This document shows, piece by piece, positions 7,928 through 50,330 of a stretch of DNA of 64,000 nucleotides. Each line of letters starts with the position of its first letter. Positions within the stretch are counted from its first letter, which is position 1. This DNA comes from a virus, in the IMG/VR virus record IMGVR_UViG_3300027747_002638; one strand, written 5' to 3'. Position numbers and translations under genes: made by a program. A model generated the notes under the pieces. The model worked only from the letters and a program-made list of their open reading frames with translations. It did no database searches and was not told the origin of the DNA.

Positions 7928-8378
7928 TTTGTTTTGGTTGTATATAAAAAACACTTTATAACAAAAATAGCCCCGCGGATTTTTTTACTTCTAAGTATAT
8001 TCATTTGTATTGATTTTTTATAGATTTAGAAAAAGGGGTAGGGGTATATATAGGAGTATAAATAAAGATAAGATAAAGTATAAGCTATTTATTGTATTTA
8101 AATTAGGTATAAATAAGTAACATATTAAAATAATGTGGAGATTGAAGATAGCCCCCTCCTCTCTCTTTTGAGTTTTAGAGCGAAGTAATTTTTTCAAAAA
8201 TGGGGTAGCCCATAGGCGAACTCAAACCTAGAAACACAGGCTAGGGATCTATATAAAAAATAAAAAACACAGAAAAAATGGGGTGGGGGTTTAGCGCTTT
8301 CTCTAAGTCGTTGACTATCAATGAAATTTAACTGAAGAAATATCTTGTGATAATCCTATTCTGTGATAGATTACCTAT

Positions 8379-8528
8379 ATGAAGAAATTAAGCAAATATG
8401 AACAACTGATCGCAAACCTCAACAAGGCTAGCCAAGACCTTAAGGATGCCTCTACCAAGGCTATCGCTACTCTTGACGCTCACGCCAACAAGGTGGAAGC
8501 TATCCATCAGGAAGCGATGACCAAATGA
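8379..8528 (+). CDS. small early protein, paralog of 9732..9920
   Basis: MKKLSKYEQLIANLNKASQDLK...; leaderless promoter TTGTGA-N16-TAGATT-N6-ATG; below the ORF-track cutoff. Confidence 0.7.
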   Translation: MKKLSKYEQLIANLNKASQDLKDASTKAIATLDAHANKVEAIHQEAMTK

Positions 8529-8608
8529 ATCAAATAGAAATCATCCTCACCCTTACCATCGTAACCATTCTTATCGGAATCTACGCTATGGTAACAGCTA
8601 AAAAATAA
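8525..8608 (+). CDS. 27-aa single-TM peptide
   Basis: MNQIEIILTLTIVTILIGIYAMVTAKK; ATGA overlap with the upstream stop. Confidence 0.5.
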   Translation: MNQIEIILTLTIVTILIGIYAMVTAKK

Positions 8609-8647
8609 CCCTTGACGAAACATAAACAGAAAGGCAATATACAACCT

Positions 8648-9067
8648 ATGAAACAAAACCTCAAAATCAGTTACCAAACCTTCGGCGAAAACAATGCTTA
8701 CCTTCTCGAAGGAAGTATCAAACAGATCAATCACTTCTTCAATTCAATATATAATTGGGAAGGAACTAACGGCAAGTTGCACGATATGGGCAACGGCAAA
8801 GCGTTTTACTTCTACGCTCATCCAGATGATGTGATGAAAGCTCTTACTAAAGTTGCGTTGCATAGCTTGGTCAATAAGATTAACGCTAAGGGACGCAAGG
8901 GTGGACTGCTTGACCTTGCCAAGGCCAAAGCACAGAGCATCGTGGATGCTATGGGTCAGACTTGTTTCCTATGGGGTGCAAGTAGCTCCGAGGGATACAG
9001 CCTTGGAACTATCAGTGCAGAGAAACCCTCTGACTACTGCGGTGCAGTCAGCAACGGAAGGGACTAA
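8648..9067 (+). CDS. hypothetical early protein, paralog of 15933..16319
   Basis: Shares YNWxGTNGxL and SLGTISAEK motifs; ATG follows a TTGACG promoter. Confidence 0.7.
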   Translation: MKQNLKISYQTFGENNAYLLEGSIKQINHFFNSIYNWEGTNGKLHDMGNGKAFYFYAHPDDVMKALTKVALHSLVNKINAKGRKGGLLDLAKAKAQSIVDAMGQTCFLWGASSSEGYSLGTISAEKPSDYCGAVSNGRD

Positions 9068-9071
9068 TCCT

Positions 9072-9449
9072 ATGACAGCAGAACTATTCATCGTAGCATT
9101 AACAATCCTTGGCGAAGCTAGGGGTGAAACCTTTGAGGGTATGGCTGGCGTTGCTAGTGTTATACAAACACGCACCATAGAGCGTAAGCAAACGCCTAGC
9201 CAAGTGTGCCTGTCACCTAAACAATTCAGCTTCTGGAATGGTGGAGTAAGTGAAGCTACCAAGAAGAAGCTACTGGCAACAGCACAAGGTAAGAACGCTC
9301 TATACCTTGCTGATCTAGTCGTCCATAAACAGATGCCAGACATCGTGAGGGGTGCAAACCATTACCACGCCATCAGCGTCGCTCCTAGATGGGCTAGAGA
9401 TGCAAGGCTAGTGGCTACAATACGCAACCACAAGTTTTATAAGTTGTAA
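9072..9449 (+). CDS. cell wall hydrolase, SleB/CwlJ (Hydrolase_2) family
   Basis: ALTILGEARGE...VASVIQTR...QFSFWN...GANHYH...PRWA...IRNHKFY signature. Confidence 0.85.
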   Translation: MTAELFIVALTILGEARGETFEGMAGVASVIQTRTIERKQTPSQVCLSPKQFSFWNGGVSEATKKKLLATAQGKNALYLADLVVHKQMPDIVRGANHYHAISVAPRWARDARLVATIRNHKFYKL

Positions 9450-9731
9450 GTAGCTGAATACCAACGACTTGCGAGCGCAGGGACGCACCTTATGTAAGTC
9501 CTTTATAATCAGATACTTGCAAAGATTCTCGATCTTCTGACAAAACCTGAATGAACGCAAAAGATCAGGCCTGATCTTGCAACAAAACCTGATGGAACGC
9601 TAAAAATCTAAACCCCTAACCATTAACGACTTACAAAAGCGACCTCCCTGCAGCTGTAACTCGTTGATGGTGAACGAGATTTAAATGAAAAAATATCTTG
9701 CAAAATTTCTAAAATGTGATAAATTAAGAGT

Positions 9732-9920
9732 ATGAAAAGAAAAACAAAATTAGAAATCCTCCTCGGAAATTTAGACAAGGCTTCGGCTGACCTCAAAAAA
9801 GCCGTTGAAGAATCCCAAAAAAGACTCGATGAAAGTTTCGCAAAATACGAACATAAAGTTGAAGTCGCTCATCATAACTCGATGATGGTCAACGAAAAAC
9901 AAATTGAAGAAATAATTTGA
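9732..9920 (+). CDS. small early protein
   Basis: Leaderless promoter TTGCAA-N16-TAAATT-N6-ATG; paralog of 8379..8528. Confidence 0.7.
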   Translation: MKRKTKLEILLGNLDKASADLKKAVEESQKRLDESFAKYEHKVEVAHHNSMMVNEKQIEEII

Positions 9921-9994
9921 CTTTTGCAGGAATTGTGGTAAACTATATACATAAGATAAAAGATAACAAATAACAAAGAAAGAAAAAAAATAAA

Positions 9995-10270
9995 ATGACT
10001 CATAGAATGATAAACTGGAATTTTCAACGAAAACAAATGCGTGAAAATATGCGAAAAAATATGAATGCTTCTGAAGAAGTAATCATAACTAACTCTAACA
10101 ATACACCAACTTACTTTGGTAAAATATACCTTTACGAAGGAACTCTAGTAAAAGTTTCTTATAAAACTTCTGCAAATACTGCGGTTGTAACCTTCCTAGA
10201 AGGTAAAGATAAAGATAAGGTTGGAACTATCAACCTTAATAACGCTAAACTAATAAAGGAAAATAAATAA
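9995..10270 (+). CDS. hypothetical protein, paralog of 10823..11041
   Basis: Shared LVKV...LEGxDKxK motif and near-identical A-rich leader. Confidence 0.65.
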   Translation: MTHRMINWNFQRKQMRENMRKNMNASEEVIITNSNNTPTYFGKIYLYEGTLVKVSYKTSANTAVVTFLEGKDKDKVGTINLNNAKLIKENK

Positions 10271-10444
10271 ATGAATAACGATAATAAAAAACAATTAACT
10301 TCCCAAGAATGGGAAATTCAACGCAAAGAAAAAAATCAAGCTCTTTGGGCTAATCGTAAAAAGCGATGGTCTGAATGGAAAAAGAATAATCCTGAAAAGG
10401 CTAAAGCTCACGCCTTACTAAAGGCAAAACTTAATGGAAAATAA
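10271..10444 (+). CDS. small basic hypothetical protein
   Basis: 57-aa ORF abutting the upstream stop (MNNDNKKQLTSQEWE...). Confidence 0.55.
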   Translation: MNNDNKKQLTSQEWEIQRKEKNQALWANRKKRWSEWKKNNPEKAKAHALLKAKLNGK

Positions 10445-10448
10445 ATAA

Positions 10449-10646
10449 ATGAACATTCAACAATTCGAAGAACTCTTAAAGAATCACGATTGGACTTACC
10501 AAATGAGTGAAGACTCATACTACTATCGTAGGGGTCAAAAACAACTTAAAGAAATTGAAGAAGCTATCGCCCAAGCTGGTGAATCAGAATGGGGCGAAGA
10601 ATATCAAAACCTATATAATCAATATCGTAACAAGTTTGGAGTTTGA
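10449..10646 (+). CDS. hypothetical phage protein
   Basis: LLKNHDWTYQMSED...YRRG motif seen in small phage proteins. Confidence 0.65.
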   Translation: MNIQQFEELLKNHDWTYQMSEDSYYYRRGQKQLKEIEEAIAQAGESEWGEEYQNLYNQYRNKFGV

Positions 10647-10822
10647 CAAAATTAGTTGATGTAAGTTGTTGGATACCAATGACTTACGACGGCAGGGACC
10701 CTTGCGTTGCAAGTCGTTAATGATCAATGAAATTTAAATGAAGATTTTTGTTGCGTTTTCTCTGAAATATGCTAAACTATACTTATAACAAGATAAGAAA
10801 TAACAAAGAAAGAAAAAATAAA

Positions 10823-11041
10823 ATGATAACAATAAATAAAGAACTAACTACAGATGAAAATACTTTTCGATATGGTCACGAAAGACTACTCGTAAAGGTT
10901 TTCCCTTCTACAATCGGTTGGAAAACTATGACTGCAACTGCTGAAATCCTCGAAGGTGAGGACAAAGGTAAATGGACAACCATTTATCTTCGTAGCGGAT
11001 TGTATAATGTCGATACAGATTCTCTTGTCTGGTATCGCTAA
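10823..11041 (+). CDS. hypothetical protein
   Basis: Start after the duplicated A-rich leader (MITINKEL). Confidence 0.6.
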   Translation: MITINKELTTDENTFRYGHERLLVKVFPSTIGWKTMTATAEILEGEDKGKWTTIYLRSGLYNVDTDSLVWYR

Positions 11042-11103
11042 ATCGTTAATAATCAAAGAGAAAAAAAGTTTGACAAAATAAGAAAGTGTGATAGATTAAA
11101 GGT

Positions 11104-11505
11104 ATGACATACGAAAAAAGAAAACAAAAAGAAATAGCAACTCAACAAGCCAACAGAGCTGAAAAAGCTAGGCTCACAGCAGAAAAGGCTGAACTTTTCA
11201 AAAGTCTCAACATCCAAATTGGTGACTTCATCGAAATAACAACCTCGAAAGGTAGTGAAGTTTTGTTCGTGGAAGATTCTGCGAATACTTACGACACTTT
11301 GCCTTTCCTCAAAAACATTCTTTTCCTCTCATTCAGAGGAATCAATGGTGCTGGCATCGTTGGGATGACTTGTCTCCTCGATGTTGTGGAAGTTAAAAAA
11401 GTAAAAGGAAGCATCGCACTTCTACAAGAAGTTGAACAAGCGATGAAAGTTTCAAACCGAATCTTTCAAAGCTATAACGAAGCTGGAAGTTATAAAGGAG
11501 ACTAA
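11104..11505 (+). CDS. hypothetical early protein
   Basis: TTGACA-N16-TAGATT-N6-ATG leaderless promoter. Confidence 0.7.
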   Translation: MTYEKRKQKEIATQQANRAEKARLTAEKAELFKSLNIQIGDFIEITTSKGSEVLFVEDSANTYDTLPFLKNILFLSFRGINGAGIVGMTCLLDVVEVKKVKGSIALLQEVEQAMKVSNRIFQSYNEAGSYKGD

Positions 11506-11851
11506 TGAAAAAAATACTTTTCAAAATAAATAAAAAAACTTTTCGTCTTGCTGTAAAAAATGGTGAGAAGAAAAACTTTTTGCGTGAAAGATTTTTTTAC
11601 TACATCTCTGCGAGTTGTTTGAATCTTAGAGACCTCTTGTAAATAACTCACTATCAACGAGTTACGAGCGCAGGGAGGCCCCGCGCGCAAACCCTTGACT
11701 ATCAACGACTTACATAAGGCTAAACAGGACACATCATTTTAATGTTATGATTTCCTATTAAAATATTTCGTATTTAGTATTAGGCATTCTTCTATTTGAT
11801 TTTTTATAAAATAAAACTTGTGCTAAAAATAATCTGTGATACATTTAATTT

Positions 11852-12016
11852 ATGACAAACGAAATCACATCCCTAGCGACGGAAACCTGCGAGGAAGCCT
11901 ATGTGGACGCTAATGCGTTCTTTGACTACATCAATTCCAATGATGTGGTTAACTCGATGCTCGATGCGTTGAGTGGGGTTTACGATTCGGTCGAAACTAT
12001 TGTGGAGGTCAAATAA
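11852..12016 (+). CDS. small acidic protein
   Basis: 54 aa, MTNEITSLATETCEEAY...; leaderless promoter TTGTGC-N16-TACATT-N6-ATG. Confidence 0.6.
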   Translation: MTNEITSLATETCEEAYVDANAFFDYINSNDVVNSMLDALSGVYDSVETIVEVK

Positions 12017-12017
12017 T

Positions 12018-12281
12018 ATGGACTACAAAGCCTCTCTCAAGGAGTGGATGAGTCAGCACATGCTGTCTCCGTTGGATGTGCGCGACATCCTTAACCAGAT
12101 GCGCGAGGATGACCGCGCTATCAAATCCGAAACATCAGACGAGCCAAACGATTCTATGGATGGCGACTTCGACTCTGCTATGGCTTCTGCTGGCCACGGC
12201 ACTGATGAGGATTACAATGGTGGATGTTACCAGATGGAAGACTTTGGTTGGGCTGGTGACGAAAACCTCTGTGGAGAATAA
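12018..12281 (+). CDS. acidic hypothetical protein
   Basis: MDYKASLKEW...SMDGDFDSAMASAGHGTDEDY; D/E-rich. Confidence 0.65.
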   Translation: MDYKASLKEWMSQHMLSPLDVRDILNQMREDDRAIKSETSDEPNDSMDGDFDSAMASAGHGTDEDYNGGCYQMEDFGWAGDENLCGE

Positions 12282-12284
12282 TAT

Positions 12285-12422
12285 ATGATTGATATATTCG
12301 ATGACGAAAAAACCCTAAAAATTTGGGCAAAAAAAATGTTAGATGATCAAGCTATGGAGCGAGCTTTAGAAACTCAAGCAGAACTTGATTCTGACCATAT
12401 GCGTGATATGGGAGAGTCTTAA
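12285..12422 (+). CDS. small acidic protein
   Basis: 45 aa, MIDIFDDEKTLKIW...; its stop abuts the module at 12422. Confidence 0.5.
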   Translation: MIDIFDDEKTLKIWAKKMLDDQAMERALETQAELDSDHMRDMGES

Positions 12423-12726
12423 TAAGTTGCTAATAGTCAACGACTTACGGCCGCAGGGACGCCGCCGATGTAAATCCTTGATAATCAAAGACTTACACCA
12501 GCAATTTTTTACATAGAGGCTCGCCAACCTTCAAAAACTTCGTCAATCTCTCTCTGCTTTTGCACAAAACTTTTGTTTGTATCGAGTGGAGGATTTTCAT
12601 TATCACCCCACGGATAAAAACTTTCTAAATTTTCGTTTAATAGTTTTTCTATATTCATTTTGACATTTTGAATGTTAGAGTTAATCCTAATATCACAAGA
12701 CATAAAAATATTTCCATTTAGACATC

Positions 12727-13362
12727 TTAATGCTTTTTATAATCTATTGCAAACTCATTCTTATCCCAACACTTGCGACAATCACCGCACTTGTTCCCTT
12801 GTTTAGAAGATGGGCAGTTAAAGTTTCCTAGCTTGCTCGCACCGCTAACGCACAAGCCAAGGCGTTGTGCAATTCCTACGGGTGCGGGGCCATCCATCAT
12901 AAGAGCAGACAAACGGATGGTAAGATTACTAGGCACTTCTCCACCTTGTTCGATATAGGTTGAGACAAAAGCATATTCACGAGTTGGAAGCCAAAAAGAA
13001 ATGTGAGGAAGATTCTTTGCAATCTTCACAATCTTTTCAATATGCCAAACACCTTGCAAGTCTCCTGAATCGTGCCACCTGAAATGTGGATTCTTAACTT
13101 TACCAATCAAATAAGTCATAGCGTCCACCCACAAATCGTTAGTAAGAGAAGCGAAACGCTTTTCCATAGCTTTCTGAACATTGGGGAAAACATAACGCCC
13201 TTTAAGAGCATAGCAAAAAGCACAAATGCTTCCTACAACATTCCGCATTTTTTGCCCGATAAGACAACGTTTTGCGGGCGTTGAGTAAGCATATCCAGGC
13301 ATCTTCGAGGGTTTTGAGAGTGTGCCAACAATCTCTTCGGCTTGTTTTTTGTTTTTGAACAT
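12727..13362 (-). CDS. GP88-like protein (phage gene product 88 family)
   Basis: SKMPG...C...ICAFCYALKG...FRWHDSGD...FWLPTRE...C-terminal CxxCxxCW. Confidence 0.8.
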   Translation of the reverse strand: MFKNKKQAEEIVGTLSKPSKMPGYAYSTPAKRCLIGQKMRNVVGSICAFCYALKGRYVFPNVQKAMEKRFASLTNDLWVDAMTYLIGKVKNPHFRWHDSGDLQGVWHIEKIVKIAKNLPHISFWLPTREYAFVSTYIEQGGEVPSNLTIRLSALMMDGPAPVGIAQRLGLCVSGASKLGNFNCPSSKQGNKCGDCRKCWDKNEFAIDYKKH

Positions 13363-13474
13363 AGAATTAGATTAACACTTTTTTTTCTTGTGACAAGTTT
13401 TTTTTACAATTAAATCTCGTTGACTATCAATGACTTACGACGGCAGGGACCCCGCTTGCGTAAGTAGTTAATAC

Positions 13475-14311
13475 TTAAGCAGTTACAGCTTCTTCTTCTT
13501 GAATTTCTTCGCTTTCTTTTCTATCAACAAAAGCGTCAAATCTTTTTTGTGCTTTGCTAGAAGCTGAGATGATAAAGTTTGTATCTTTTTTTAATACTTC
13601 TAACCAATTGGAAAGATAGCTGGCAGAATTGTTAAAACATTTTTCAGAATCAATTCCGCAGAAGTTAAGACAAAGACTAGCAAAAATCTCAGCGGTCAAT
13701 TCTTCTTTGCTATAATTCTGAGAACCAAAACCATTCTTAACATTATCGCCTGTGCTTTTATGCATAGCGTGGCCGATCTCATGAAATGCTGTGGAGTAAT
13801 ACTCCTCAACGCTGTTAAAGTTTTCTTTTGGGGGTAAATCAATCTTATGATCTTCTGGATAGTAACAGGCACGACTGCCACCATACTTAATCTGAATCAC
13901 GCACTTGTTGATTAACTTTTCTGCTTCTTCTACTGGTGAGAAATCCAACTTCTGGACTTCTGGCTGTTTCCACTTCATACCTTCAATATCACTCAAACCA
14001 AAAACCTTGTAGAATCTCATAAGAGGAAAGCCACCTGATTCATCATCTTTCTTTTTTAATAGTTTGTAATAAACTACCATGTGAGACTTAGCGCCTTTTT
14101 TGATTTTTCCACCTAGCTCTTTAATCTGATTAAATGTAAAAAAGAAATCATCAGAAGCTACCATGCGAAGTAAGAATTGATTAATGCCTCGATAACCTTT
14201 TTTGGAAACTCCGTTGCAAAGATCAAAAACTTTCCAAGGCTTCTGCCAAGGAATGACTCCTTTGTTGAGGGCTTCGATGAACTTTTCTGTGATAATTTCG
14301 TTTACTTTCAT
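13475..14311 (-). CDS. ardC: ArdC-like antirestriction protein (ssDNA-binding + zincin domain)
   Basis: GVIPWQKPW, YRGIN, TFNQI..LGGKIKKG, YYSTAFHEIGH, YSKEELTAEI. Confidence 0.88.
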   Translation of the reverse strand: MKVNEIITEKFIEALNKGVIPWQKPWKVFDLCNGVSKKGYRGINQFLLRMVASDDFFFTFNQIKELGGKIKKGAKSHMVVYYKLLKKKDDESGGFPLMRFYKVFGLSDIEGMKWKQPEVQKLDFSPVEEAEKLINKCVIQIKYGGSRACYYPEDHKIDLPPKENFNSVEEYYSTAFHEIGHAMHKSTGDNVKNGFGSQNYSKEELTAEIFASLCLNFCGIDSEKCFNNSASYLSNWLEVLKKDTNFIISASSKAQKRFDAFVDRKESEEIQEEEAVTA

Positions 14312-14463
14312 AGCTTAAATATATCAGAAATTTGTTTTTTGTCTACATTTAAATTTCATTGAGTATCAACGACTTATAGCACAAGAGCCCCTGCTTATGC
14401 AAGTGTTTGACTATCAAAGAGATAAAAATATTGATTTAAAACCAATATAGTGTAATATAAGTT

Positions 14464-14640
14464 ATGAAGGTTTCTGGTTTACTTGAATCGTCTGCTCTAT
14501 ATAAAAAGTTTGTTGAAGAGCGAAATGAAATCCTAAAGCACAAATGGCTCGAAAGCGAAAAAGCTGGCCACGATATTGGTTTTGAAAAAGCTCTGTTAGA
14601 TTGGGTTTTCAATCACAGAGAAAAATGGCGTAATAAATAA
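14464..14640 (+). CDS. DUF4032-like small protein (Verrucomicrobia-type)
   Basis: SALYKKFVEERNEILKHKWLESEKAGHDIGFEKALLDW; 58 aa, missed by the ORF track. Confidence 0.7.
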   Translation: MKVSGLLESSALYKKFVEERNEILKHKWLESEKAGHDIGFEKALLDWVFNHREKWRNK

Positions 14641-14852
14641 TTCTTCGACCCTCTACGCTCATGATTTCGTAAAGGAATATCCTGCTCCTCTACCGCCTCT
14701 GACTCTGGGCGTTGGCAGGTTCATCCTCTTATGGGAGTTAGTCAGACTCGCCAAGAGAAGTATTGGCGTTCCGTTATATATAATCAATGTTGCCATTGAA
14801 AACTTTCCAGAACTGCAACCTTTCGGTCAACCTTCTCTGATATCGAAGAACT
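14641..14852 (-). ncRNA. candidate ~210-nt structured ncRNA
   Basis: Own promoter TTGCAC-N16-TAAGAT with no ATG at +1; ends pair (UUCUUCGA/UCGAAGAA); GNRA-capped hairpins. Confidence 0.6.
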
Positions 14853-14887
14853 AAAACTATCTTAACATACTTTTGTTTATGTGCAAT

Positions 14888-14915
14888 AAAAAAGGCGAGG
14901 TTTTTACGCCTCGCC
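14888..14915 (-). terminator. intrinsic terminator
   Basis: GGCGAGG/CCTCGCC stem followed by a T-run on the minus strand, downstream of 14940..15206. Confidence 0.75.
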
Positions 14916-14939
14916 CTTTCTATAATGTCTTTCTGTAGT

Positions 14940-15206
14940 TTAAACTGGCGAAAGACCACCAGCGATTCGATCATAGCGGAATTGCTTCACGCCAGAATCC
15001 ATACGACCAGAAAAGCAGAAGCTAGTGAATAGCTTGTTCCCTGCCTTGCTGATGGTATGAGAAGAAGGCTTGCTGATGATGTAAGTATAGACATCATTCT
15101 TGCCGTAGGGTTTGTATTCGATTAAATACCTTTGCCCCAAGAGGAAAAGGACGAAGTGTTTCAGATATGAGGTTGCGTATATGATTGCGTTTTTGATTTT
15201 GTTCAT
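14940..15206 (-). CDS. hypothetical early protein
   Basis: Leaderless promoter TTGTGA-N16-TATATT-N6-ATG. Confidence 0.65.
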   Translation of the reverse strand: MNKIKNAIIYATSYLKHFVLFLLGQRYLIEYKPYGKNDVYTYIISKPSSHTISKAGNKLFTSFCFSGRMDSGVKQFRYDRIAGGLSPV

Positions 15207-15336
15207 AGATTAAATATACCATACCTTTGTTTTTTCACAAGAAAAATCTTAAATTAAATCTCGTTGATGGTCAACGACTTACGCGCGCAGGGACCCGCCT
15301 TTTGTAACTACTTAATAATCAAATACTTATAATAGT

Positions 15337-15498
15337 TTAATCTTCTTGTTCTTTCCAATTAGGATGAGCTTTAACCCATTTATGCCAAACGATTTCCAAG
15401 CCAGCAAGATGCTTTTCTATTTCAGCAATAAGCCTTGGATCTTCATCTCGAAGAACCCTCTTCTCAAGTATTTTGCTTATTCTATTTTCGTTTTTCAT
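15337..15498 (-). CDS. small hypothetical protein
   Basis: 53-aa ORF, MKNENRISKILEKR... Confidence 0.5.
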   Translation of the reverse strand: MKNENRISKILEKRVLRDEDPRLIAEIEKHLAGLEIVWHKWVKAHPNWKEQED

Positions 15499-15771
15499 AT
15501 CAGTATATATTACAATTATTTGTAAAATATTTCAACTATTTATTATATACTGTTAGATATTTAGGAAAATCTATTTTAGATGTGTAATTAGTATTTTGAT
15601 TAACTCTTGTACTCCACCCCAGCAAATCGTTAGCATTAAACATAAAATAAAAAACTCTACGCCAAATTTCTCAAAAACATTTCTCACATAAATAGAATAC
15701 ATTCTATTTTTTATTTAGAGAAAATATTTCGTAATGTCGCTCTCTTTAGTGCAAGTTTTCATAAAAATTCT

Positions 15772-15844
15772 CGCTCTCGGCAGGATTCAAACCTGCGATC
15801 TATTGATTAGAAATCAATTGCATTATTCGCTATGCTACGAGAGC
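15772..15844 (-). tRNA. tRNA-Arg(TCT)
   Basis: Cloverleaf GCTCTCG...ATTGA-TT-TCT-AA-TCAAT...GCAGG-TTTGAAT-CCTGC-CGAGAGC-G; no encoded CCA. Confidence 0.85.
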
Positions 15845-15853
15845 GATAAAGTT

Positions 15854-15926
15854 TCGCCTAGGTCAGACTCGAACTGACACTTGAACGATTTTAAGTCGTT
15901 TGCCTCTGCCATTGGGCTACTAGGCG
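15854..15926 (-). tRNA. tRNA-Leu(TAA), short variable loop
   Basis: CGCCTAG acceptor, AACGA-CT-TAA-AA-TCGTT anticodon arm, 5-nt variable loop, A73. Confidence 0.85.
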
Positions 15927-15932
15927 GATTGT

Positions 15933-16319
15933 TTAGCTGTCAGTATCTAACTTTTCAGCAGAAATAGTGCCGAGAGAATAGATGTCCTCGACTTGTGCTG
16001 TGCGAACAAAATGTTCGTTTGGAATATTATCAATAGTGTTCTTCACTCGATTCATAGCAACTGCTTTTAATCCACCTTTAGCACCACGGAACTTCTTTCC
16101 AAGTTTATCGCTCAAACTACTCATAATATACTTAAACATCACTCGCTCCAACTTTTCGAGAGTAATCCAAAAATAAGCAAAGTCATTACTCATCCATTGA
16201 AGCTCTCCGTTTGTTCCACCCCAATTATAGACTCGATTGTGGAACTGCTGAATCTCGTCCTTGTTACCTTTAATTCCAATAACCCAATGTGCTCCGAGGT
16301 TTTGTTTCATTAATTTCAT
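15933..16319 (-). CDS. hypothetical early protein, paralog of 8648..9067
   Basis: VYNWGGTNGEL...SLGTISAEK; leaderless TTGACA promoter. Confidence 0.7.
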   Translation of the reverse strand: MKLMKQNLGAHWVIGIKGNKDEIQQFHNRVYNWGGTNGELQWMSNDFAYFWITLEKLERVMFKYIMSSLSDKLGKKFRGAKGGLKAVAMNRVKNTIDNIPNEHFVRTAQVEDIYSLGTISAEKLDTDS

Positions 16320-16447
16320 AGTTTATAGTTTATCCTGTTCTTGTTTTTTGTCAATACTTTTATTGTTAAAATACCAATCTATATCTTCTTGAGTTGTTTC
16401 TGTATGCTTACTATAAGAGTTGAGCATCCAATCCGCACAAGGAGAAG

Positions 16448-16519
16448 TGGGCAAGGCTGGACTCGAACCAGCACTAGGAGAATTATGAGTTCTCTGTTTC
16501 ACCTTTAAACTACTTGCCC
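16448..16519 (-). tRNA. tRNA with CAT anticodon (Ile2 or elongator Met)
   Basis: GGGCAAG acceptor, GAGAA-CT-CAT-AA-TTCTC, GCTGG-TTCGAGT-CCAGC; no fMet features. Confidence 0.85.
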
Positions 16520-16711
16520 CACTTTAGCAGGAAAGCTCGAAGGTTTTGGCACTTGAAAGAACTCTACTGCAAAAGCCTTGGCGTAATTTTCCAAGTCTTT
16601 CAGAGAGCAAGTCTCTTTCGGTGTGCACATGCGGATTGAGGTGTTTAGGATGATGGCTCGGTCTTTACCGAACACATTCACCACATAGAATGGAATTGTT
16701 TTGTTTGTCAT
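16505..16711 (-). CDS. hypothetical protein
   Basis: Leaderless start MTNKTIPF after TTGACT-N16-TATATT; 3' end overlaps the tRNA. Confidence 0.55.
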   Translation of the reverse strand: MTNKTIPFYVVNVFGKDRAIILNTSIRMCTPKETCSLKDLENYAKAFAVEFFQVPKPSSFPAKVGQVV

Positions 16712-16778
16712 AGGTTTAATATACAACAATTAGAGAAATAGTCAATAAAAATAATTCGTTGAATGATAAGGCTTTACA

Positions 16779-16869
16779 TACTAGGGGAAGGATTCGAACC
16801 TTCATTACGCTCAAATCTAGAGCTTCACGAGTATAAGTCGTGGGTCTTAACCAGTTAGACGACCCTAGC
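16779..16869 (-). tRNA. tRNA with TAT anticodon (Ile by anticodon) and long variable arm
   Basis: GCTAGGG/CCCTAGT acceptor, CACGA-CT-TAT-AC-TCGTG, 22-nt variable region with a GCTC/GAGC stem, GAAGG-TTCGAAT-CCTTC. Confidence 0.8.
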
Positions 16870-16908
16870 AATCAACACCAAGCCGTAGCTCAATGTCAGC
16901 CTCCGAAG

Positions 16909-17067
16909 TTATCCACCGATTTTCTTGATGGTAACTTTCGTTCCATCAGGCCAAGAGCGGATGACCTTACGCCAAAACTCCGCTTCTTGCTCGGCATCTT
17001 CCATCTTCGAGTGCATATCTTCACTCACACGGACTCCATCTCGCAAAACGATATACTTAAGATTCAT
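16909..17067 (-). CDS. small hypothetical protein
   Basis: 52 aa, MNLKYIVLRDGVRVSEDMH...; overlaps the upstream ORF stop. Confidence 0.55.
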   Translation of the reverse strand: MNLKYIVLRDGVRVSEDMHSKMEDAEQEAEFWRKVIRSWPDGTKVTIKKIGG

Positions 17068-17293
17068 TTTCTACCTCCAATGCTACTGCGTTGTCAAACA
17101 TTGAGCCACCATCTACTGCATCACAAATAACGATGTCATTACTGCCATCATCACCAGCATATACAGCTCGTAGTTTTCTTGTTTGACTATGTTCTTTTTT
17201 TGTCCATTGACTCTCTGGAACGCCGAGGACTTGCAGAGCCTCAACTCTCTCTGGTGAAAGTGCTTCACCGCTTACTGCACATTTATATGTCAT
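17057..17293 (-). CDS. hypothetical protein (DksA/TraR-finger-like N-terminus)
   Basis: YKCAVSGEALSPERVEAL resembles a degenerate CxxCGxxIxxxRLEA motif. Confidence 0.45.
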   Translation of the reverse strand: MTYKCAVSGEALSPERVEALQVLGVPESQWTKKEHSQTRKLRAVYAGDDGSNDIVICDAVDGGSMFDNAVALEVENES

Positions 17294-17300
17294 AATCGGA

Positions 17301-17714
17301 TTATACCGCTAATTGTTCTGGTGTCAAGTGAATTTCTGCTGGGGGTTCTGGAAGAACATTATTCTTCCGAGGACGGCCACGGCCACGCTTCTCACCATTA
17401 GGCATAGTTGCAGTTGCAACATAAGCTGATAGTTTTTCTTTTAGTTGGATGAATCGTTTGTCTGCATCTTCACGATCAATACAAGTGAATGCCCAATCGC
17501 CCCATTGACTATCGCTAGGATACATTTCAGCAGGAGGCATCTTCACACCTGCAATTTCATATCCATTGTGACGCTTAATAGCAATCACTTCATAGTTAAA
17601 AGCTTCGCTGTCATCTTCATCGAGTTTCTTTTTATAGATAGCAACATCTCCATCACGACCAACCATCGTGAACTTAAATCCTCGACTGGTAAATGTTTCT
17701 TCAAGAGTTTTCAA
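17301..17714 (-). CDS. hypothetical protein with C-terminal AT-hook
   Basis: KRGRGRPRK motif; TTG start after an AGGAG Shine-Dalgarno. Confidence 0.65.
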   Translation of the reverse strand: MKTLEETFTSRGFKFTMVGRDGDVAIYKKKLDEDDSEAFNYEVIAIKRHNGYEIAGVKMPPAEMYPSDSQWGDWAFTCIDREDADKRFIQLKEKLSAYVATATMPNGEKRGRGRPRKNNVLPEPPAEIHLTPEQLAV

Positions 17715-17881
17715 TTTTTACTCCTTTAGGAAGCCACGCTTCCAAAGTCAGACCTTCTCCAATATATCCGACTTGAGTTTCAGTTTTAGTTTTAGGGTCA
17801 GTTGCGTATAGTGCGTAGCCACCCTCCTTTAGTTTTTTGGCTTTAGTGATTTCCATTAGATAATCTTACTATACTTTTAGA

Positions 17882-18223
17882 TTAATTCAAGACAAAAATA
17901 TCACGATTAATTACTCCAACCCATTTAGCTTTATATACAGGCTCTAGGGTATCAGAGTAAACAAAGCTATTAAACTTATAAGGATTATATGTTACTTTTC
18001 TTTCAGTTTGATCTACTGGCCATCCATCGTCTGGTGTGCCACACACAAAAGCGTGAACATTCTTTCTTTGTTCTTTTAATACTCTGTTTCTACCAGCTTG
18101 ACTCACTCTAAACTCAACATCTTTCAAAAAGAATTCTGTGCTATGCTCTAATACTTTTCCTCTAAGCATAATAGAAAGACAATGCTTATGTAAATTATAA
18201 TATACTTTATGCTTTGCTTTCAT
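17882..18223 (-). CDS. conserved hypothetical phage protein
   Basis: VYYNLHK...FRVSQAGRNRVLKEQRKNVHAFV...VTYNPY. Confidence 0.75.
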   Translation of the reverse strand: MKAKHKVYYNLHKHCLSIMLRGKVLEHSTEFFLKDVEFRVSQAGRNRVLKEQRKNVHAFVCGTPDDGWPVDQTERKVTYNPYKFNSFVYSDTLEPVYKAKWVGVINRDIFVLN

Positions 18224-18356
18224 CTCATAACTATAACATAAATAATATAAATGTCAAGCTATGTAAACCTTTGATAGATAACGAGTTACAAAAGCGGAAC
18301 CCCTGCCGTCGCAAGTGCTTGATAGTCAACGACTTATGCATGATACAATAAGTGCA

Positions 18357-18390
18357 AAAAGAAGCGGAGGGTTTTGCCCTCCGCCTCTGT
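18357..18390 (-). terminator. intrinsic terminator
   Basis: GCGGAGGG/CCCTCCGC stem plus T-run after the DUF932 gene. Confidence 0.75.
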
Positions 18391-18407
18391 TAAAGTTTCG
18401 TTTTAGT

Positions 18408-19265
18408 TTAGGCGACCAGTTTCAAGAGGTCTTCGTCACGGGTTTTGCCCGAGAAGACTTTGAGCAAGTCAGTGCTGATACGCTCACTGTACTCGTAGCG
18501 TTCATCTGCAACATTACGAGTTAGGAACTGAGTTGACGCATTGTACAAATTGTACAGGTTGCGATCAGTATCCTCCTCATAAGAAGGATTACGCCACACT
18601 GCTTCGATGCCTTCACGCACCTTGGCAGAGATGATAGCCTTCTCCTCCAACTTGGTGAGCAAGGTCAAACCCTGCTCATCAGTGATTGCCTTCTGCGCTA
18701 ACCTGTTAAAGATTGCTACAGAGGTATCAACACTGGAGACCGCATTAGCCAACGCATCACCAATAAAATCCAGATTGACAGCAAGAGTGTGCCTCTTGGT
18801 CATGCTGAACTCCTTGGTCAACGATTTCATTCCGTTAGTGCAAATCAAACGGAGGAAACCGAGGGTTAATGAGACACGACTGGAGCGGTCATAACTGTTG
18901 TTAACAGTCAATCGCAGTCCGAGAATGTCTCCCTTGGCACGCTTGCCAACTGGCTTCAATTCAGTCTTGAAGTCAGTGAAGTCATAGCTAGCGTAGAAAC
19001 GAGCACCATCACGAACCACAAACTTTTTGGAGTTGTAGTTAGCGAGCATACTGTTCTCCGATAGCGACTCTTCGACCATCGTTACGAGGTCTGCATTCTT
19101 CACCACACCATACTGCTCGGTGCAAACTCCGAGTGTCATGGGTTCGGCGGTGTCACGGCGCACCATGCCGAAGTATCCTGTCCTCTTGCCGTCTGTTGTG
19201 AGGAGTGGCTCTTGGTGTACATCGAAATCGTATACACTTTGAGCGGGTTTTGTTGTTCTAGCCAT
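18408..19265 (-). CDS. DUF932-family protein
   Basis: LGVCTEQYGVVKN...NSYDRSS...LRLICTNGM...H; NLYNLYNASTQFLT. Confidence 0.8.
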   Translation of the reverse strand: MARTTKPAQSVYDFDVHQEPLLTTDGKRTGYFGMVRRDTAEPMTLGVCTEQYGVVKNADLVTMVEESLSENSMLANYNSKKFVVRDGARFYASYDFTDFKTELKPVGKRAKGDILGLRLTVNNSYDRSSRVSLTLGFLRLICTNGMKSLTKEFSMTKRHTLAVNLDFIGDALANAVSSVDTSVAIFNRLAQKAITDEQGLTLLTKLEEKAIISAKVREGIEAVWRNPSYEEDTDRNLYNLYNASTQFLTRNVADERYEYSERISTDLLKVFSGKTRDEDLLKLVA

Positions 19266-19447
19266 ATGTTAATCATACCATACTTTTAACTTATGACAAG
19301 AACTTTTTTCGTGTCATAAGATTCTGATACTCAAGTACTTGCCAATCCTGTGAAAGTTTTTTTATATTGTTGCAAGTGCTTACCTATCAACGACTTACGC
19401 GCGCAGGGAGCCCGCTCACGTAACTATATAATAATCAACTACTTATG

Positions 19448-19900
19448 TCAAACTAAATTTAATTTATAATTACCTTTTCTATATTCTCTTACTTTCCTCT
19501 TAGCATATAAAGACGCATCTACTTCACATAATTTAGCTCTAGTACCCATATTATATTTTCTTATCTTTTTAATGCCATGATAGAACTTATTCTTTTTATA
19601 TTGATATAAGTGTCTTAATTCATGAGCAATTAATTCAATTAAACCTTCTTCCCAGCTATATGTTTCTACATTAAGATAGCCTCTTCTGCCTCCAGTATTA
19701 TAAGGTCTAAGATACTTGCCATATCTAGGCACACCAATATGTACTCTCATGCTACCCCAAGCCCTGCCATGCCAATTTAATTTAGTATTACCAAAATCTA
19801 TCTTTCTAATGTCTTTAAGAAATACGCCATCTGGCATACACCATTTAATAATTTCTTTTAACTTTTCAGAACAATAAGAGGTGCTATTAATTAACTTCAT
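19448..19900 (-). CDS. zincin-like metallopeptidase-motif protein
   Basis: LIAHELRHLYQ (HExxH) with a downstream E (CEVDA). Confidence 0.6.
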   Translation of the reverse strand: MKLINSTSYCSEKLKEIIKWCMPDGVFLKDIRKIDFGNTKLNWHGRAWGSMRVHIGVPRYGKYLRPYNTGGRRGYLNVETYSWEEGLIELIAHELRHLYQYKKNKFYHGIKKIRKYNMGTRAKLCEVDASLYAKRKVREYRKGNYKLNLV

Positions 19901-19925
19901 AAGTTAATAATATACTATATTGAAA

Positions 19926-21781
19926 TTAAGTCAAGATGATAACTTCTGCTTCTATTCTTTTTCGCTCATTCTCCAAATCTCTCAGCATCTTTACCTGCTC
20001 ATCCCAAACTCCAATCCCCTTTTCAACATCATAAATAATCTTGTACATATTATCTTTTATAGTTTTTAATTGATCTTCATATATCTTTTTCAGTTTGTTT
20101 TGTAGGTCTTGATAAGAATATGTCATATATTTATAGTATATTAAATTAATTAAATGTCAATCATCATTCATCATATCACTTAATAATATCAAAGGAAATA
20201 ACAATATAAATAAAACTATATTAACTAGACTCTTTAGTATCTTCACTATCTCTTATTACACTCCTAATAAGTAGCAATTCATCAAAGCATATTACTGGCT
20301 TTTCGTTTAGTATTTCAATGCAAAATAGGTTATTCATTGTAGCTAAAGTATATATAAATAACAAAAACAATACTTAATATAATAGCAAAAATTAAAGGTG
20401 CATTACTCATTAATCCATTCCAATAGATGTTCTAGTTCGTGAATTGCACTCTCTAATAAATTAACCGCATCTTGATTATTATCATGCTCGACTTGTAGGG
20501 TTTTATATTCTACAATCCTATCATTGATTTCTTTGACAATTTGCTCACTCGACTTCATCTTCATCTCCTTGTGTTAAAGTATAACCGCAAACTTCTAAAG
20601 CCAACTCTAGTGCTTTTTTATAGCTATTAGCTTTAATTATTTTCATGGGCTCTTGCATATCTGCACTTTGCCAAAGCTTAAACTTCATCTTCGTCCTCCT
20701 CTTCTTCCTCGACATCAATAGCTTCAAAGTTATAATCAACCTCATCCCAATCGAGCATAAAGCCATTAGCATCAGTGCAATTCTCAGCCATCTCTGTTGC
20801 CTTATCAACCGCTTCCTCATCTGATGTGGCCTCGACCTCGATGTCCACTTCTGCGATTTGGTTGCGTTGCATACGAATCGTGAATTTCTTTAGGGGTTTT
20901 TCGGTGTTGTTCATAGTTTTAATATACTCCTTTTATATTTATTGTCAAATTATATTTTTAGGAATCTCTATTTGCCACTTGCTAGTAATCCATTTAAGGA
21001 TCTGATCTGACCAGTAACCACTTACTATTTGAAACAAGTCTCTTTCGATTCTAATCCTATCAAAGCTATAATAGATATATTGATTAATTAAGTATGGTGC
21101 ATCACACGAACCTCTGGTAATATGATTAGTAGAAATAACATCTATCTTAATATTAGTTAATGTTTTAGGAATAACTACCTTGATAGTTCCGCCAAGTGCT
21201 GTCTCGCCTATTTTGAATGTTTTAGTCATAAATAGAATATAACCTAAATTATTATTTAGTCAATTAAATATTCTATATTGTTTCGCCGCTTTAATTAATT
21301 TCTTTCTTAATGATTCATTGGTAACACTATATGAGCCACCCCAATCTGATCTCTTTATTTCTCTAAAGCATAATTCATTATTACCATCAAATGATTCTAT
21401 TACTTCATAATCAGCAGGGCCAATCTTAAATTGATAATACATTTTAACACTTCTTGATGTTAAGGTAGGTTCAGAGTTTGTTTTTGTTGATGCCATATAT
21501 TTAATATAACTTAAATTATTATTTTGTCAAACCCTTTCCCACTTCGCGCCCCATCTATTTAATGCATCTTTTGCTTCTTTGAATGTTTTGAAATAAGTAT
21601 ATTGCGTTGGTTCACAATGAGGAAACACTTGTTTAGCCATCCATACTTTCTTATTTAGTAATTTTTTATTATACTCGCCACCAAACAAATAAGGATTATT
21701 GTTTACTACGCGATCTAAAATATAACAAAATATCGTGGGCTTGTTGATATAGTTTGCTATGTATTGGTATGTGCTGTTCAT
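19926..21781 (-). other. run of small monocistronic hypothetical genes (19926-20126, 20678-20914, 20945-21229, 21260-21496, 21527-21781)
   Basis: Each preceded by TTGAC(A/T)-N16-TA(T/C)(A/T)(T/A)T-N6-ATG. Confidence 0.65.
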
Positions 21782-49940: not shown

Positions 49941-50330
49941 TGGACCCGAAAGGAGTTGAACCTTTGTCTTTTAAAAATCTAAATTAAAATACTACAAGTT
50001 TAGTTCTTTTTATTTTTTAGCTTTGTATAGATATAAGAACAAACATACTTAGCGTATTCTATCTTGAATATTATTATTTAAAGAACAGAAAAACTATTAA
50101 ATAATAAACATCTAATTACGCAATATTCCAGTAGATGCGTCGTGGATATCACGCTGTAGAACTTAGGCTACAGAAGCGGTCATCTCAACAAGAGAAACTC
50201 TTGCAGAAATATGACCTTTATATTTTGCTGTTTTGGCAGTTAATATAAGTGAAACTTTTTAAGGAGTCCTCGATTCAACCTCCACTTGCATTTCAATTCA
50301 TTTTCTTAAAATCGAAACCAGTACGGGCCC
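49941..50330 (-). ncRNA. ssrA: tmRNA (SsrA)
   Basis: 5' GGGCCCGUACUGGUUUCGA; 3' GGUUCAACUCCUUUCGGGUCCA with G3:U70; tag ORF 50237-50163 AKTAKYKGHISARVSLVEMTASVA*. Confidence 0.92.

Follow-up and report, generated by a model that had tools for sequence, protein, structure and literature searches.

The closest likeness to the repeats described here is offered by the PeSL (promoter-early stem-loop) cassettes of T4-type phages, whose core is a stem-loop with demonstrated transcription termination (Arbiol et al. 2010, PMC2839356; Comeau et al. 2014, PMC4122927). Like our modules, they are repeated intergenic units in hyperplastic regions rich in small accessory genes and combine an AT-rich stretch, a G-run/C-run element and a strong sigma70-type early promoter. 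In both systems the cassettes are transcriptionally self-contained, and indels, replacements and displacements between close relatives stop at the units. Unlike PeSL, the modules have no supported fold and a polarity independent of transcription, and their AT-rich flanks consist of a pair of precise 27-bp IHF-consensus sites, each mirror-symmetric, set at a constant 48 bp from one another; the transcripts are leaderless instead of Shine-Dalgarno-led. By analogy, the modules are best read as a putative new anatomical variant of PeSL cassettes.

Other systems share single aspects of this design. At lambda pL, Mu Pe and the ilvPG UAS, a consensus IHF site lies upstream of the -35 element on one helical face, and bending stimulates or modulates a strong promoter of a phage or operon; each of these promoters has a single asymmetric site, whereas the present phage has symmetrised sites, two dozen of them and most rigidly paired, that recur as a module. 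Many copies of one protein site also occur at the early promoters of SPO1, where they bind TF1, a phage-encoded DNABII protein, and between mycobacteriophage genes as stoperators, which are repressor-bound in L5. The likeness is that of a repeated site controlling a block of genes. Unlike SPO1, the present phage has no DNABII gene, and whereas stoperators are short, asymmetric, aligned with transcription and genome-wide, the boxes are symmetric and confined to one island. Finally, BIME-1 and RIP (RIB) elements of E. coli consist of two inverted REPs around an IHF site (PMC3333891, PMC2817692). They too are composite intergenic repeats that follow genes and join an IHF site to GC-rich palindromic DNA, but the order is reversed, the modules having the bending sites outside and the GC core inside. 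REPs, moreover, fold, occur genome-wide in hundreds of copies and are RAYT-linked; the modules show no fold, are limited to the island, and no RAYT transposase was found with them.

The window, i.e., the whole 64-kb stretch analyzed, derives from an uncultured freshwater phage of 170 kb. The phage carries rIIA, ligase and NrdAB genes; a search for a Gp23-family capsid gave no match, the controls of that search being likewise silent, and unlike the phages that carry PeSL it is no demonstrated T4-type. The modules lie between small genes of an island with a GC content of 36–40%, versus 26–31% in the backbone, that encodes ArdC, DUF932, a SleB-type hydrolase, an AT-hook protein, four tRNAs and many small ORFs. 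Judging from the promoter type, this island would be early.

Each module comprises a 27-bp box, a 21-bp GC-rich spacer with GCAGGG and a second 27-bp box, 75 bp in total and ungapped. A profile built from the ten copies reported in the first-pass annotation was searched against the window and returned exactly these ten as full-length matches (E 1e-14 to 1e-20). It also recovered all four lone boxes reported there and added a fifth, at 9872; the rest of the window gave no further match at E<0.9. The ten-copy alignment has 75 columns, no gaps and a mean column identity of 76%. As described earlier, GCAGGG is present in every spacer, on the plus strand in seven copies and on the minus strand in three (9608, 14351, 18263), and it is invariant at columns 32–37. 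The boxes themselves are degenerate, an idealised 27-mer with up to three mismatches finding only one site (and none in shuffles); the two boxes of a module lie exactly 48 bp apart. The features are as follows:

8303–19446, unstranded: accessory/anti-defence island enclosing every module and box
8303–8329, unstranded: lone box at the left island edge; centre 8316, 29 bp to TTGTGA (8345) of leaderless gene 8379–8528
9446–9520, plus: module 1; hydrolase stop codon inside the first box; left half of an inward-facing module pair
9531–9608, plus: two direct 36–42-bp repeats, GATC-bounded, between modules 1 and 2
9608–9682, minus: module 2; right-hand box centre 9669, 29 bp to -35 TTGCAA (9698) of leaderless gene 9732–9920
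9872–9898, unstranded: lone box within the 3' end of gene 9732–9920; TTGACT (9917) 32 bp on
10661–10735, plus: module 3, after gene 10449–10646; box centre 10722, TTGCGT (10751) 29 bp on
11038–11064, unstranded: lone box; 19 bp to TTGACA (11070) of leaderless gene 11104–11505
11639–11713, plus: module 4; first box holds the stop codon of gene 11505–11642; no directly adjacent promoter
12422–12496, plus: module 5, flanked by convergent gene ends 12422 (plus) and 12509 (minus); no adjacent promoter
13412–13486, plus: module 6; right box holds the ArdC stop codon; left box, centre 13425, 29 bp to the -35 of leftward leaderless gene 12727–13362
14351–14425, minus: module 7, between divergent promoters; box centre 14364, 19 bp to the -35 of the ArdC gene (ATG 14311); box centre 14412, 19 bp to the -35 of gene 14464–14640
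15256–15330, plus: module 8; box centre 15269, 29 bp to the -35 of leftward gene 14940–15206
16751–16777, unstranded: lone box adjoining tRNA-Ile; 19 bp to TTGACT of a leftward gene starting at 16711
18263–18337, minus: module 9; box centre 18276, 19 bp to TTGACA of leftward gene 17882–18223
19316–19342, unstranded: weak lone box; 30 bp to TTGTCA of the leftward DUF932 gene (ATG 19265)
19372–19446, plus: module 10 at the right island edge, adjoining the stop codon of gene 19448–19900

About 50 contigs in IMG/VR carry modules. In a relative of 171,916 bp (100% complete by CheckV), all 10–11 modules lie at 124.7–136.4 kb, a single 12-kb island making up about 7% of the genome; the confinement to some 11 kb noted earlier holds both in the window and genome-wide in this relative. 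Among bacterial genomes of 185,579 species, no true modules were found except in one 1-kb contig of a MAG. Relatives keep the spacer length (of 244 module instances, 209 measure exactly 75 bp and the others 74–78 bp), while in them GCAGGG loosens to a GGG core (93–95%) inside a G/C-rich stretch. At orthologous sites the core is the most variable part (72% identity versus 88% for the boxes), and the 3-bp centre of each box also varies among copies. The GGG core, its polarity and the exact 21-bp spacing have no account in the explanation favored below.

Conservation within the boxes follows IHF closely. The invariant or near-invariant module positions are A3, T10, A18, A19, T24, T25, A51, A52, T58, A66 and T73, as well as C17, A22, A26 and C27; together they spell the IHF consensus WATCAANNNNTTR, which may not be that of the host, and its mirror image around TTGA-N3-TCAA. 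In every half-box the high-information positions coincide exactly with those of the IHF consensus, and the island is about 3-fold enriched in exact 13-mer matches to it. IHF introduces two DNA kink steps about 9 bp apart, with the TTR thymine T44 6 bp from the nearer kink (PMC5829579), a geometry that puts the box's kinks at T9|T10 and A18|A19. The mirrored half-boxes thus hold two kink steps 9 bp apart, matching the IHF–DNA crystal structure, so the likeness is stronger than the first-pass annotation had claimed. Across 154 distinct 75-bp copies, no compensatory changes were detected with each box folded on itself or box 1 set against box 2, and Watson–Crick pairing equals the independent-column prediction at every symmetric pair; among the ten copies of the window, pairing amounts to 72% of cells, versus 71% in shuffles. 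This argues that the palindromes are protein sites and not RNA stems. The boxes are predicted to be two-fold-symmetric sites bound by a DNA-bending dimer of the DNABII (IHF/HU) type, which we infer to be most likely the host's because the phage encodes none; a non-DNABII dimer touching three successive grooves could leave the same conservation pattern.

The boxes are also phased to promoters. Measured from the box centre, the TTG of the -35 element is 19–20 bp away in 62 distinct contexts and 29–30 bp away in 98, contexts that share descent and are not independent events; nearly all other matches are +48 images arising from the distal box. The phased promoters are sigma70-type and leaderless, and the two distances are one helical turn apart, which fits the earlier proposal of a promoter upstream element. 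In the window, 12 promoters lie at 19, 29–30 or 32 bp from a box. Outside the island, at least 25 promoters share this leaderless sigma70 design and have no box, so the boxes are not generally needed for transcription. Likewise, a promoter at a phased distance is missing from 4 of the 10 modules in the window and, over all distinct module contexts, from 99 of 259, indicating that promoter support is not their sole role.

With moderate confidence, we favor the reading that these are promoter and boundary modules bound by a host DNABII protein, doubling as recombination linkers. The box would serve as an architectural upstream element, placed on one helix face with its centre about 53 or 63 bp ahead of the start of a promoter of the host sigma70 type, from which transcription would begin at the ATG. 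It may bend the upstream DNA back onto the polymerase or insulate the promoter from its neighbor, the regulatory effect being presumably activation or insulation. Paired boxes with their stiff GC-rich 21-bp core would form a boundary between cassettes that are expressed independently. Cassettes that are otherwise unrelated have no sequence but the modules in common, and these are adjoined by stop codons and promoters; homologous recombination between modules could thereby delete, move or replace whole cassettes with the neighbors left intact. Exchange would be general and homologous, not site-specific, a logic matching the "mobile regulatory cassettes" of PeSL.

By analogy with the stoperators of L5 and the TF1 sites of SPO1, the boxes might instead be operators for a phage-encoded dimeric regulator unrelated to HU/IHF that switches the island as a block, the pairs allowing cooperative binding. 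Boxes in a single island, with identical promoters elsewhere lacking them, would suit a dedicated regulon, as would the phasing to the -35 and the protein readout suggested by absent covariation. Factor dependence would also fit the scarcity of the consensus -35 TTGACA in box-adjacent promoters (2 of 12, versus about 15 of 26 outside the island), and an AT-hook protein is encoded there. Yet the 20 island proteins examined showed no recognisable specific DNA-binding domain, and the base-for-base match to the IHF consensus with 9-bp kink spacing would become mere coincidence. We consider such a regulator unlikely.

Still less probable is that the modules are selfish, non-autonomous MITE- or BIME-like repeats that spread in the island and are functionless for the phage. 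The copy number, the terminal inverted symmetry, the BIME-like inverted layout and the orientation flips recall such elements, but the fixed register to the -35, the strict length and invariant positions over about 50 contigs, the restriction to 7% of the genome and the lack of copies in bacterial genomes (that one MAG contig excepted) do not, nor was a transposase found.

Comparison of relatives revealed cassettes swapped, moved or lost with their ends in modules. Of 362 homology end-points, 35% map to modules or boxes or lie no more than 10 bp from them, these elements spanning 10% of the island; further breakpoints fall at plain gene junctions. Intergenic DNA is where homology breaks anyway, which weakens the breakpoint argument. 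In relative L012 the block 16758–18222 is relocated, its three breakpoints being box 16751, module 9 and module 8, and in six relatives gene 12277–12495 with its module adjoins the ArdC promoter. A contig from a DNA run joins 13452 to 14407, i.e., the inside of module 6 to the inside of module 7, and lacks ArdC; other population joints run from box to box or promoter to promoter. These events fit the cassette shuffling put forward in the first-pass annotation, whose interpretation stands for this role, the promoter role and the IHF likeness. A decoy sink for IHF/HU found no support, and searches of the complete 172-kb genome for a tyrosine or serine recombinase, a Y1 transposase or a DNABII (HU/IHF) gene were negative. 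That result counts against dedicated exchange or inversion sites comparable to integron attC or resolvase/invertase sites, in which the bending sites would be accessory arms and the polar GC core the crossover region. Inverted arms around an asymmetric core do recall recombinase core sites, the modules bound cassettes, and spacer orientation is flipped in 8% of pairs with both flanks conserved. The population joints, however, are scattered over spacer, box and promoter, and the core, which would have to match between partners, is the most variable part, with the 3-bp box centre variable too; we regard this explanation as quite improbable.

It appears equally doubtful that the modules work at the RNA level, whether by terminating transcription in both directions, by being processed by RNase III or by stabilising 3' ends between early genes, in the manner of REP elements, the PeSL stem-loop or the RNase III sites of T7. 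The modules lie directly 3' of stop codons, their palindromes are able to fold, some spacers form a short GC hairpin followed by TTTT, and several metatranscriptome contigs end at or in modules (e.g., 10655, 11642, 13455), a weak hint. Against this, compensatory changes are absent in every register and the spacer alone folds like shuffles (-5.9 versus -5.5 kcal/mol). Relative to transcription, GCAGGG stands on the antisense strand in 79% of cases in one gene block and on the sense strand in 61% in the other, and no transcript need cross module 7, between its divergent promoters. The phage moreover has ordinary hairpin-plus-U terminators, one of which, that of the DUF932 gene (about 18362–18392), adjoins module 9.

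Least probable is that the polar core serves a DNA translocase or nuclease as a KOPS-, Chi- or packaging-like signal, the bends only presenting it: the KOPS likeness suggested earlier fails, as the cores do not match the 8-mer GGGNAGGG, good conservation is limited to GGG, near-identical phages show flipped polarity at orthologous sites and the signals would occupy just 12 kb of 172 kb, the point in its favor being a modest polarity bias on the genome axis, about 70% one way in both gene blocks.

The 64-kb window was searched with a profile built from the ten copies of the 75-bp module, each consisting of two 27-bp boxes around a 21-bp GC-rich spacer. The search recovered just those ten full-length modules and nothing comparable elsewhere, in agreement with the first-pass annotation, which had restricted them to the early-island stretch. 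The copies align without gaps over 75 columns, with a mean identity of 76%, and the spacer motif GCAGGG is invariant as described, on the + strand in seven modules and on the - strand in three. The boxes themselves are degenerate, and the ideal 27-mer occurs within three mismatches at one window site only. The lone boxes previously listed at 8303, 11038, 16751 and 19316 were recovered as single-box matches; the list was incomplete, a further box at 9872 having been overlooked.

Features of the island
8303-19446: accessory and anti-defence island
9446, 9608, 10661, 11639, 12422, 13412, 14351, 15256, 18263 and 19372: starts of modules 1 to 10
15771-16870: tRNA genes Arg-TCT, Leu-TAA, Met-CAT and Ile-TAT, inside the island

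To extend the analysis to relatives, the ArdC protein was used as a query, which yielded 27 IMG/VR loci at 85-99% identity, every one with 3-13 modules. About 50 contigs with true modules were recognized by the pattern of invariant positions, and 186 distinct modules were gathered across loci, 154 of them exactly 75 bp long. The confinement also holds on the genome scale: in a relative (G001) whose 171,916-bp contig is rated 100% complete, all 10-11 modules lie inside 124.7-136.4 kb, a single ~12-kb stretch of 172 kb and again a patch of higher GC. Public runs containing the window's stretch are freshwater metagenomes, and no near-identical match to the island turned up among 50,697 GenBank phage records. 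When the invariant-position pattern was run over 185,579 prokaryote species, with one genome each, it produced 12 matches, with true modules on one 1-kb MAG contig only. The other 11 represent one conserved Bacteroidota coding sequence, a chance fit to the degenerate pattern that obtains no score with the module profile. Likewise, the five matches of a first exact-pattern scan of viral contigs were dismissed as chance, being located on GC-rich contigs without a second box. The MAG genome (1.4 Mb) holding the module contig has no taxonomy and no match to the IHF/HU family DNABII, and is therefore uninformative on the phage host; the phage GMP-reductase-like gene falls into viral clusters only in the protein atlas and hence gives no lead to the host. 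Full-text literature searches found no description of such modules, and we rate the element as real, conserved and undescribed.

The window derives from a large tailed phage that encodes rIIA, DNA ligase and NrdAB; a Gp23-family search gave no match, but the controls of that search were equally silent. The island has a G+C content of 36-40% vs 26-31% in the genome, and it stands 7-10 points above the backbone both in the window (8000-20000 vs the rest) and in G001 (124-136 kb). This gap suggests that the island genes circulate in a gene pool other than that of the backbone. Its genes run rightward from 8379 to 12422 and leftward from 19900 to 12509, encoding ArdC-type anti-restriction, DUF932, GP88-like, L5-gp82-like, SleB-type hydrolase, AT-hook and zincin-like proteins as well as many small ORFs. 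The AT-hook motif is C-terminal in a 137-aa protein (17301-17714, - strand; Pfam E 0.0014, just above the cut-off), which could bind minor grooves in AT-rich DNA.

Conservation within the boxes is concentrated on the positions of the IHF consensus WATCAANNNNTTR. Information peaks at A3, T10, (A15, T16, C17) A18, A19, A22, T24, T25, A26 and C27 and, in box 2, at the mirrored columns. The IHF consensus is spelled out by columns 14-26 (W-A-T-C-A-A-N4-T-T-R), and the left half mirrors it, giving the core TTGA-N3-TCAA. Eleven exact matches to the 13-mer consensus fall in the island, which accounts for 38% of all such matches in the window and for 17% of the window's length. In sequence, a box is thus a two-fold-symmetrised form of the IHF site, and it would fit a homodimeric DNABII protein or a heterodimer bound in either orientation. 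In the numbering of the H' site, the kink presumably lies at the A|A step of TCAA. IHF on this site has two kink steps ~9 bp apart, the nearer of which is 6 bp away from T44 in the TTR element (PMC5829579). In TTGA-N3-TCAA, the steps T9|T10 and A18|A19 are 9 bp apart and T25 is 6 bp from A19, a correspondence of geometry only, from which we infer that a box may be kinked at T9|T10 and A18|A19. No PF00216 (DNABII) gene was found in the phage, so the binding protein would be the host's.

The symmetry of the boxes could also reflect a folded RNA. Across the 154 distinct 75-bp modules, however, the observed Watson-Crick fraction at each symmetric column pair equals the product of the column frequencies, and compensatory variation is absent in three registers (within each box, between boxes 1 and 2, and within the spacer around its centre). 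In the window's ten copies 72% of cells are paired vs 71% in shuffles, and the folding energy of the spacer by itself is near that of shuffles and no better. Since pairing follows the independent-column expectation, the symmetry is present in the consensus only, as for a dimeric protein reading half-sites independently, and hairpin models for these three registers are left unsupported by the covariation and folding tests. Module 7 sits between divergent promoters. A role as intrinsic terminator also appears unlikely: a GC hairpin with a U-run is suggested by some spacers only, and GCAGGG is antisense in 79% of one gene block. In the other block the sense orientation accounts for 61%, and about 70% of cores point one way along the genome, so the polarity of the core is not aligned with transcription. 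True intrinsic terminators occur apart from the modules. One of them, a GC hairpin with a T-run (18362-18392, - strand), closes the DUF932 gene, which has high cover, immediately next to module 9, with an RNA contig end at 18387; termination there does not rely on the module.

Nearly all transcription units open with TTGnnn-N16-18-(TGn)TAnnnT, and the ATG comes 5-8 nt after this element, which makes the transcripts leaderless. The boxes are phased to these promoters. When measured over all loci, box centres lie 19-20 bp from the T of the -35 TTG in 62 distinct contexts and 29-30 bp from it in 98 (160 together), and the +48 images of both distance classes stem from the distal box. Twelve window promoters lie 19 bp (5), 29-30 bp (6) or 32 bp (1) from the box centre; with +1 at the ATG, this places box centres near -53 and -63, positions that differ by one helical turn. 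The outer TAA of boxes provides stop codons for upstream genes. Outside the island, at least 25 promoters of identical design have no box, a consensus -35 is found in 2/12 box-adjacent promoters vs about 15/26 outside the island, and a phased promoter is missing at four window modules and in 99/259 distinct contexts. Taken together, these observations argue that promoter support is not the sole role of the module. In the window, 41 ORFs of at least 40 aa start 5-8 nt past a TTGnnn-N16-18-TAnnnT match (8379-54683, both strands), including rIIA (ATG at 42162) and the ligase gene (43318), and leaderless sigma70-type units seem to be the rule for the non-late genes of this phage.

To analyze the mosaicism of the island, the window was compared with 20 non-redundant relatives. 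Modules and boxes make up 10% of the island, and 35% of 362 homology end-points lie inside them or no more than 10 bp away; these end-points are not independent, and homology also breaks at plain gene junctions. The block 16758-18222 is located elsewhere in the relative L012, with breakpoints at box 16751, module 9 and module 8, and in six relatives the gene 12277-12495, together with its module, is found next to the ArdC promoter. All relatives keep the promoter side upstream of ArdC, and the far side differs past the module. An independent DNA-run contig joins 13452 to 14407 (module 6 to module 7) with loss of ArdC; further contig joints run from box to box (19323 to 19425) and from promoter to promoter (9913 to 10762). 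One DNA-run contig fuses tRNA-Arg to tRNA-Ile (15828 to 16789), a 960-bp deletion.

The first-pass annotation had considered recombination sites that shuffle the cassettes and proposed looking for a recombinase. In the complete genome no tyrosine (PF00589) or serine (PF00239) recombinase and no Y1 transposase was found, and we therefore favour general homologous recombination over the common 75 bp and promoter. Homologous exchange at linkers has been proposed for PeSLs, the promoter-early stem-loop cassettes of T4-type phages (PMC2839356, PMC4122927). A site-specific recombination site of the attC, res/hix or dif-like type is unlikely, as no cognate recombinase was found, the core is the most variable part and the joints fall at varied positions.

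At sites with both flanks conserved, the spacer is the least conserved part of the module (72% identity vs 88% for the boxes), and its orientation differs in 8% of such pairs. Across relatives only GGG (93-95%) and a general G/C richness are kept, with about 40% of spacers carrying GGGACC and about 50% GGGAGG. Readings of the spacer as a MotA box/middle promoter or as KOPS were dropped by eye for misfit in spacing and sequence. If each bound protein covered ~35 bp, roughly columns 32-44 would be exposed between the footprints. Modules 156-165 bp (or 199 bp) apart form pairs that face inward ('+-') in all 50 instances in relatives. Enclosed by each pair are two direct repeats of 36-42 bp with GATC at their borders and a conserved CAAAACCTGAnnGAA core; in the window, the pair occupies 9446-9682 and the repeats 9531-9608. 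This composite is absent from G001, which makes it an optional cassette and the GATC repeats not core to the system.

A more elaborate reading, to which we give little credence, treats the module as an assembly site of a higher-order nucleoprotein, an insulator and cassette-exchange device that would be integron-like without a known recombinase and specific to phage anti-defence islands. Two DNABII U-turns 48 bp apart, about 4.6 helical turns, would then produce a zig-zag fold that might expose the 13-bp GGG-centred core to a putative second factor.

The closest described system is the PeSL cassette. Like PeSLs, the modules are repeated intergenic units with a sigma70-type early promoter, seen in the window and relatives; they cluster in a hyperplastic region full of small accessory genes, here an 11-12-kb island in the window and G001; and close relatives differ by indels and replacements whose ends lie at the units. 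PeSLs have a terminator stem-loop just upstream of the promoter, whereas no stem-loop is supported for the modules, and recombination between PeSL units frees mini-circles. Their carriers are T4-type myoviruses; the present phage has the rIIA, DNA ligase and NrdAB genes and gave no Gp23-family match, in a search with silent controls. Unlike PeSLs, the modules have leaderless starts and a pair of symmetric IHF-type sites with a constant spacing of 48 bp. REP/BIME elements are folding GC-rich palindromes of high copy number genome-wide with a RAYT transposase, whereas the modules show no supported fold, have copies in the island only and lack a Y1 transposase.

Anti-defence genes of phages are replaced at a very high rate, and it is poorly understood how their exchange leaves correct expression intact. 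In a whole clade of abundant freshwater phages, each island cassette is tagged with one precise, readily recognised DNA unit, which is usable as a sequence tag for accessory and anti-defence cassettes in metagenomes and offers a natural system for testing symmetric IHF-type sites as elements of promoter architecture. As a second instance of the PeSL principle, anatomically distinct and apparently beyond the classical T4 group, the modules suggest that modular evolution in phages proceeds by 'regulatory linkers' as a general route.

Rfam families in the island comprise the four tRNAs and nothing more; outside it, ARAGORN called a candidate tmRNA with an unusual tag peptide at 49941-50330. Assembled RNA contigs from three studies cover the island, which indicates its presence in RNA libraries but does not prove transcription. 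A structured non-coding RNA gene is predicted inside the island at 14641-14886 (- strand), with a folding energy of -88.5 kcal/mol vs -66.9 in shuffles (z -4.7). Before it stands the upstream gene's strong hairpin-plus-U terminator, and the bin with this putative ncRNA has by far the top depth in one metatranscriptome (2126).
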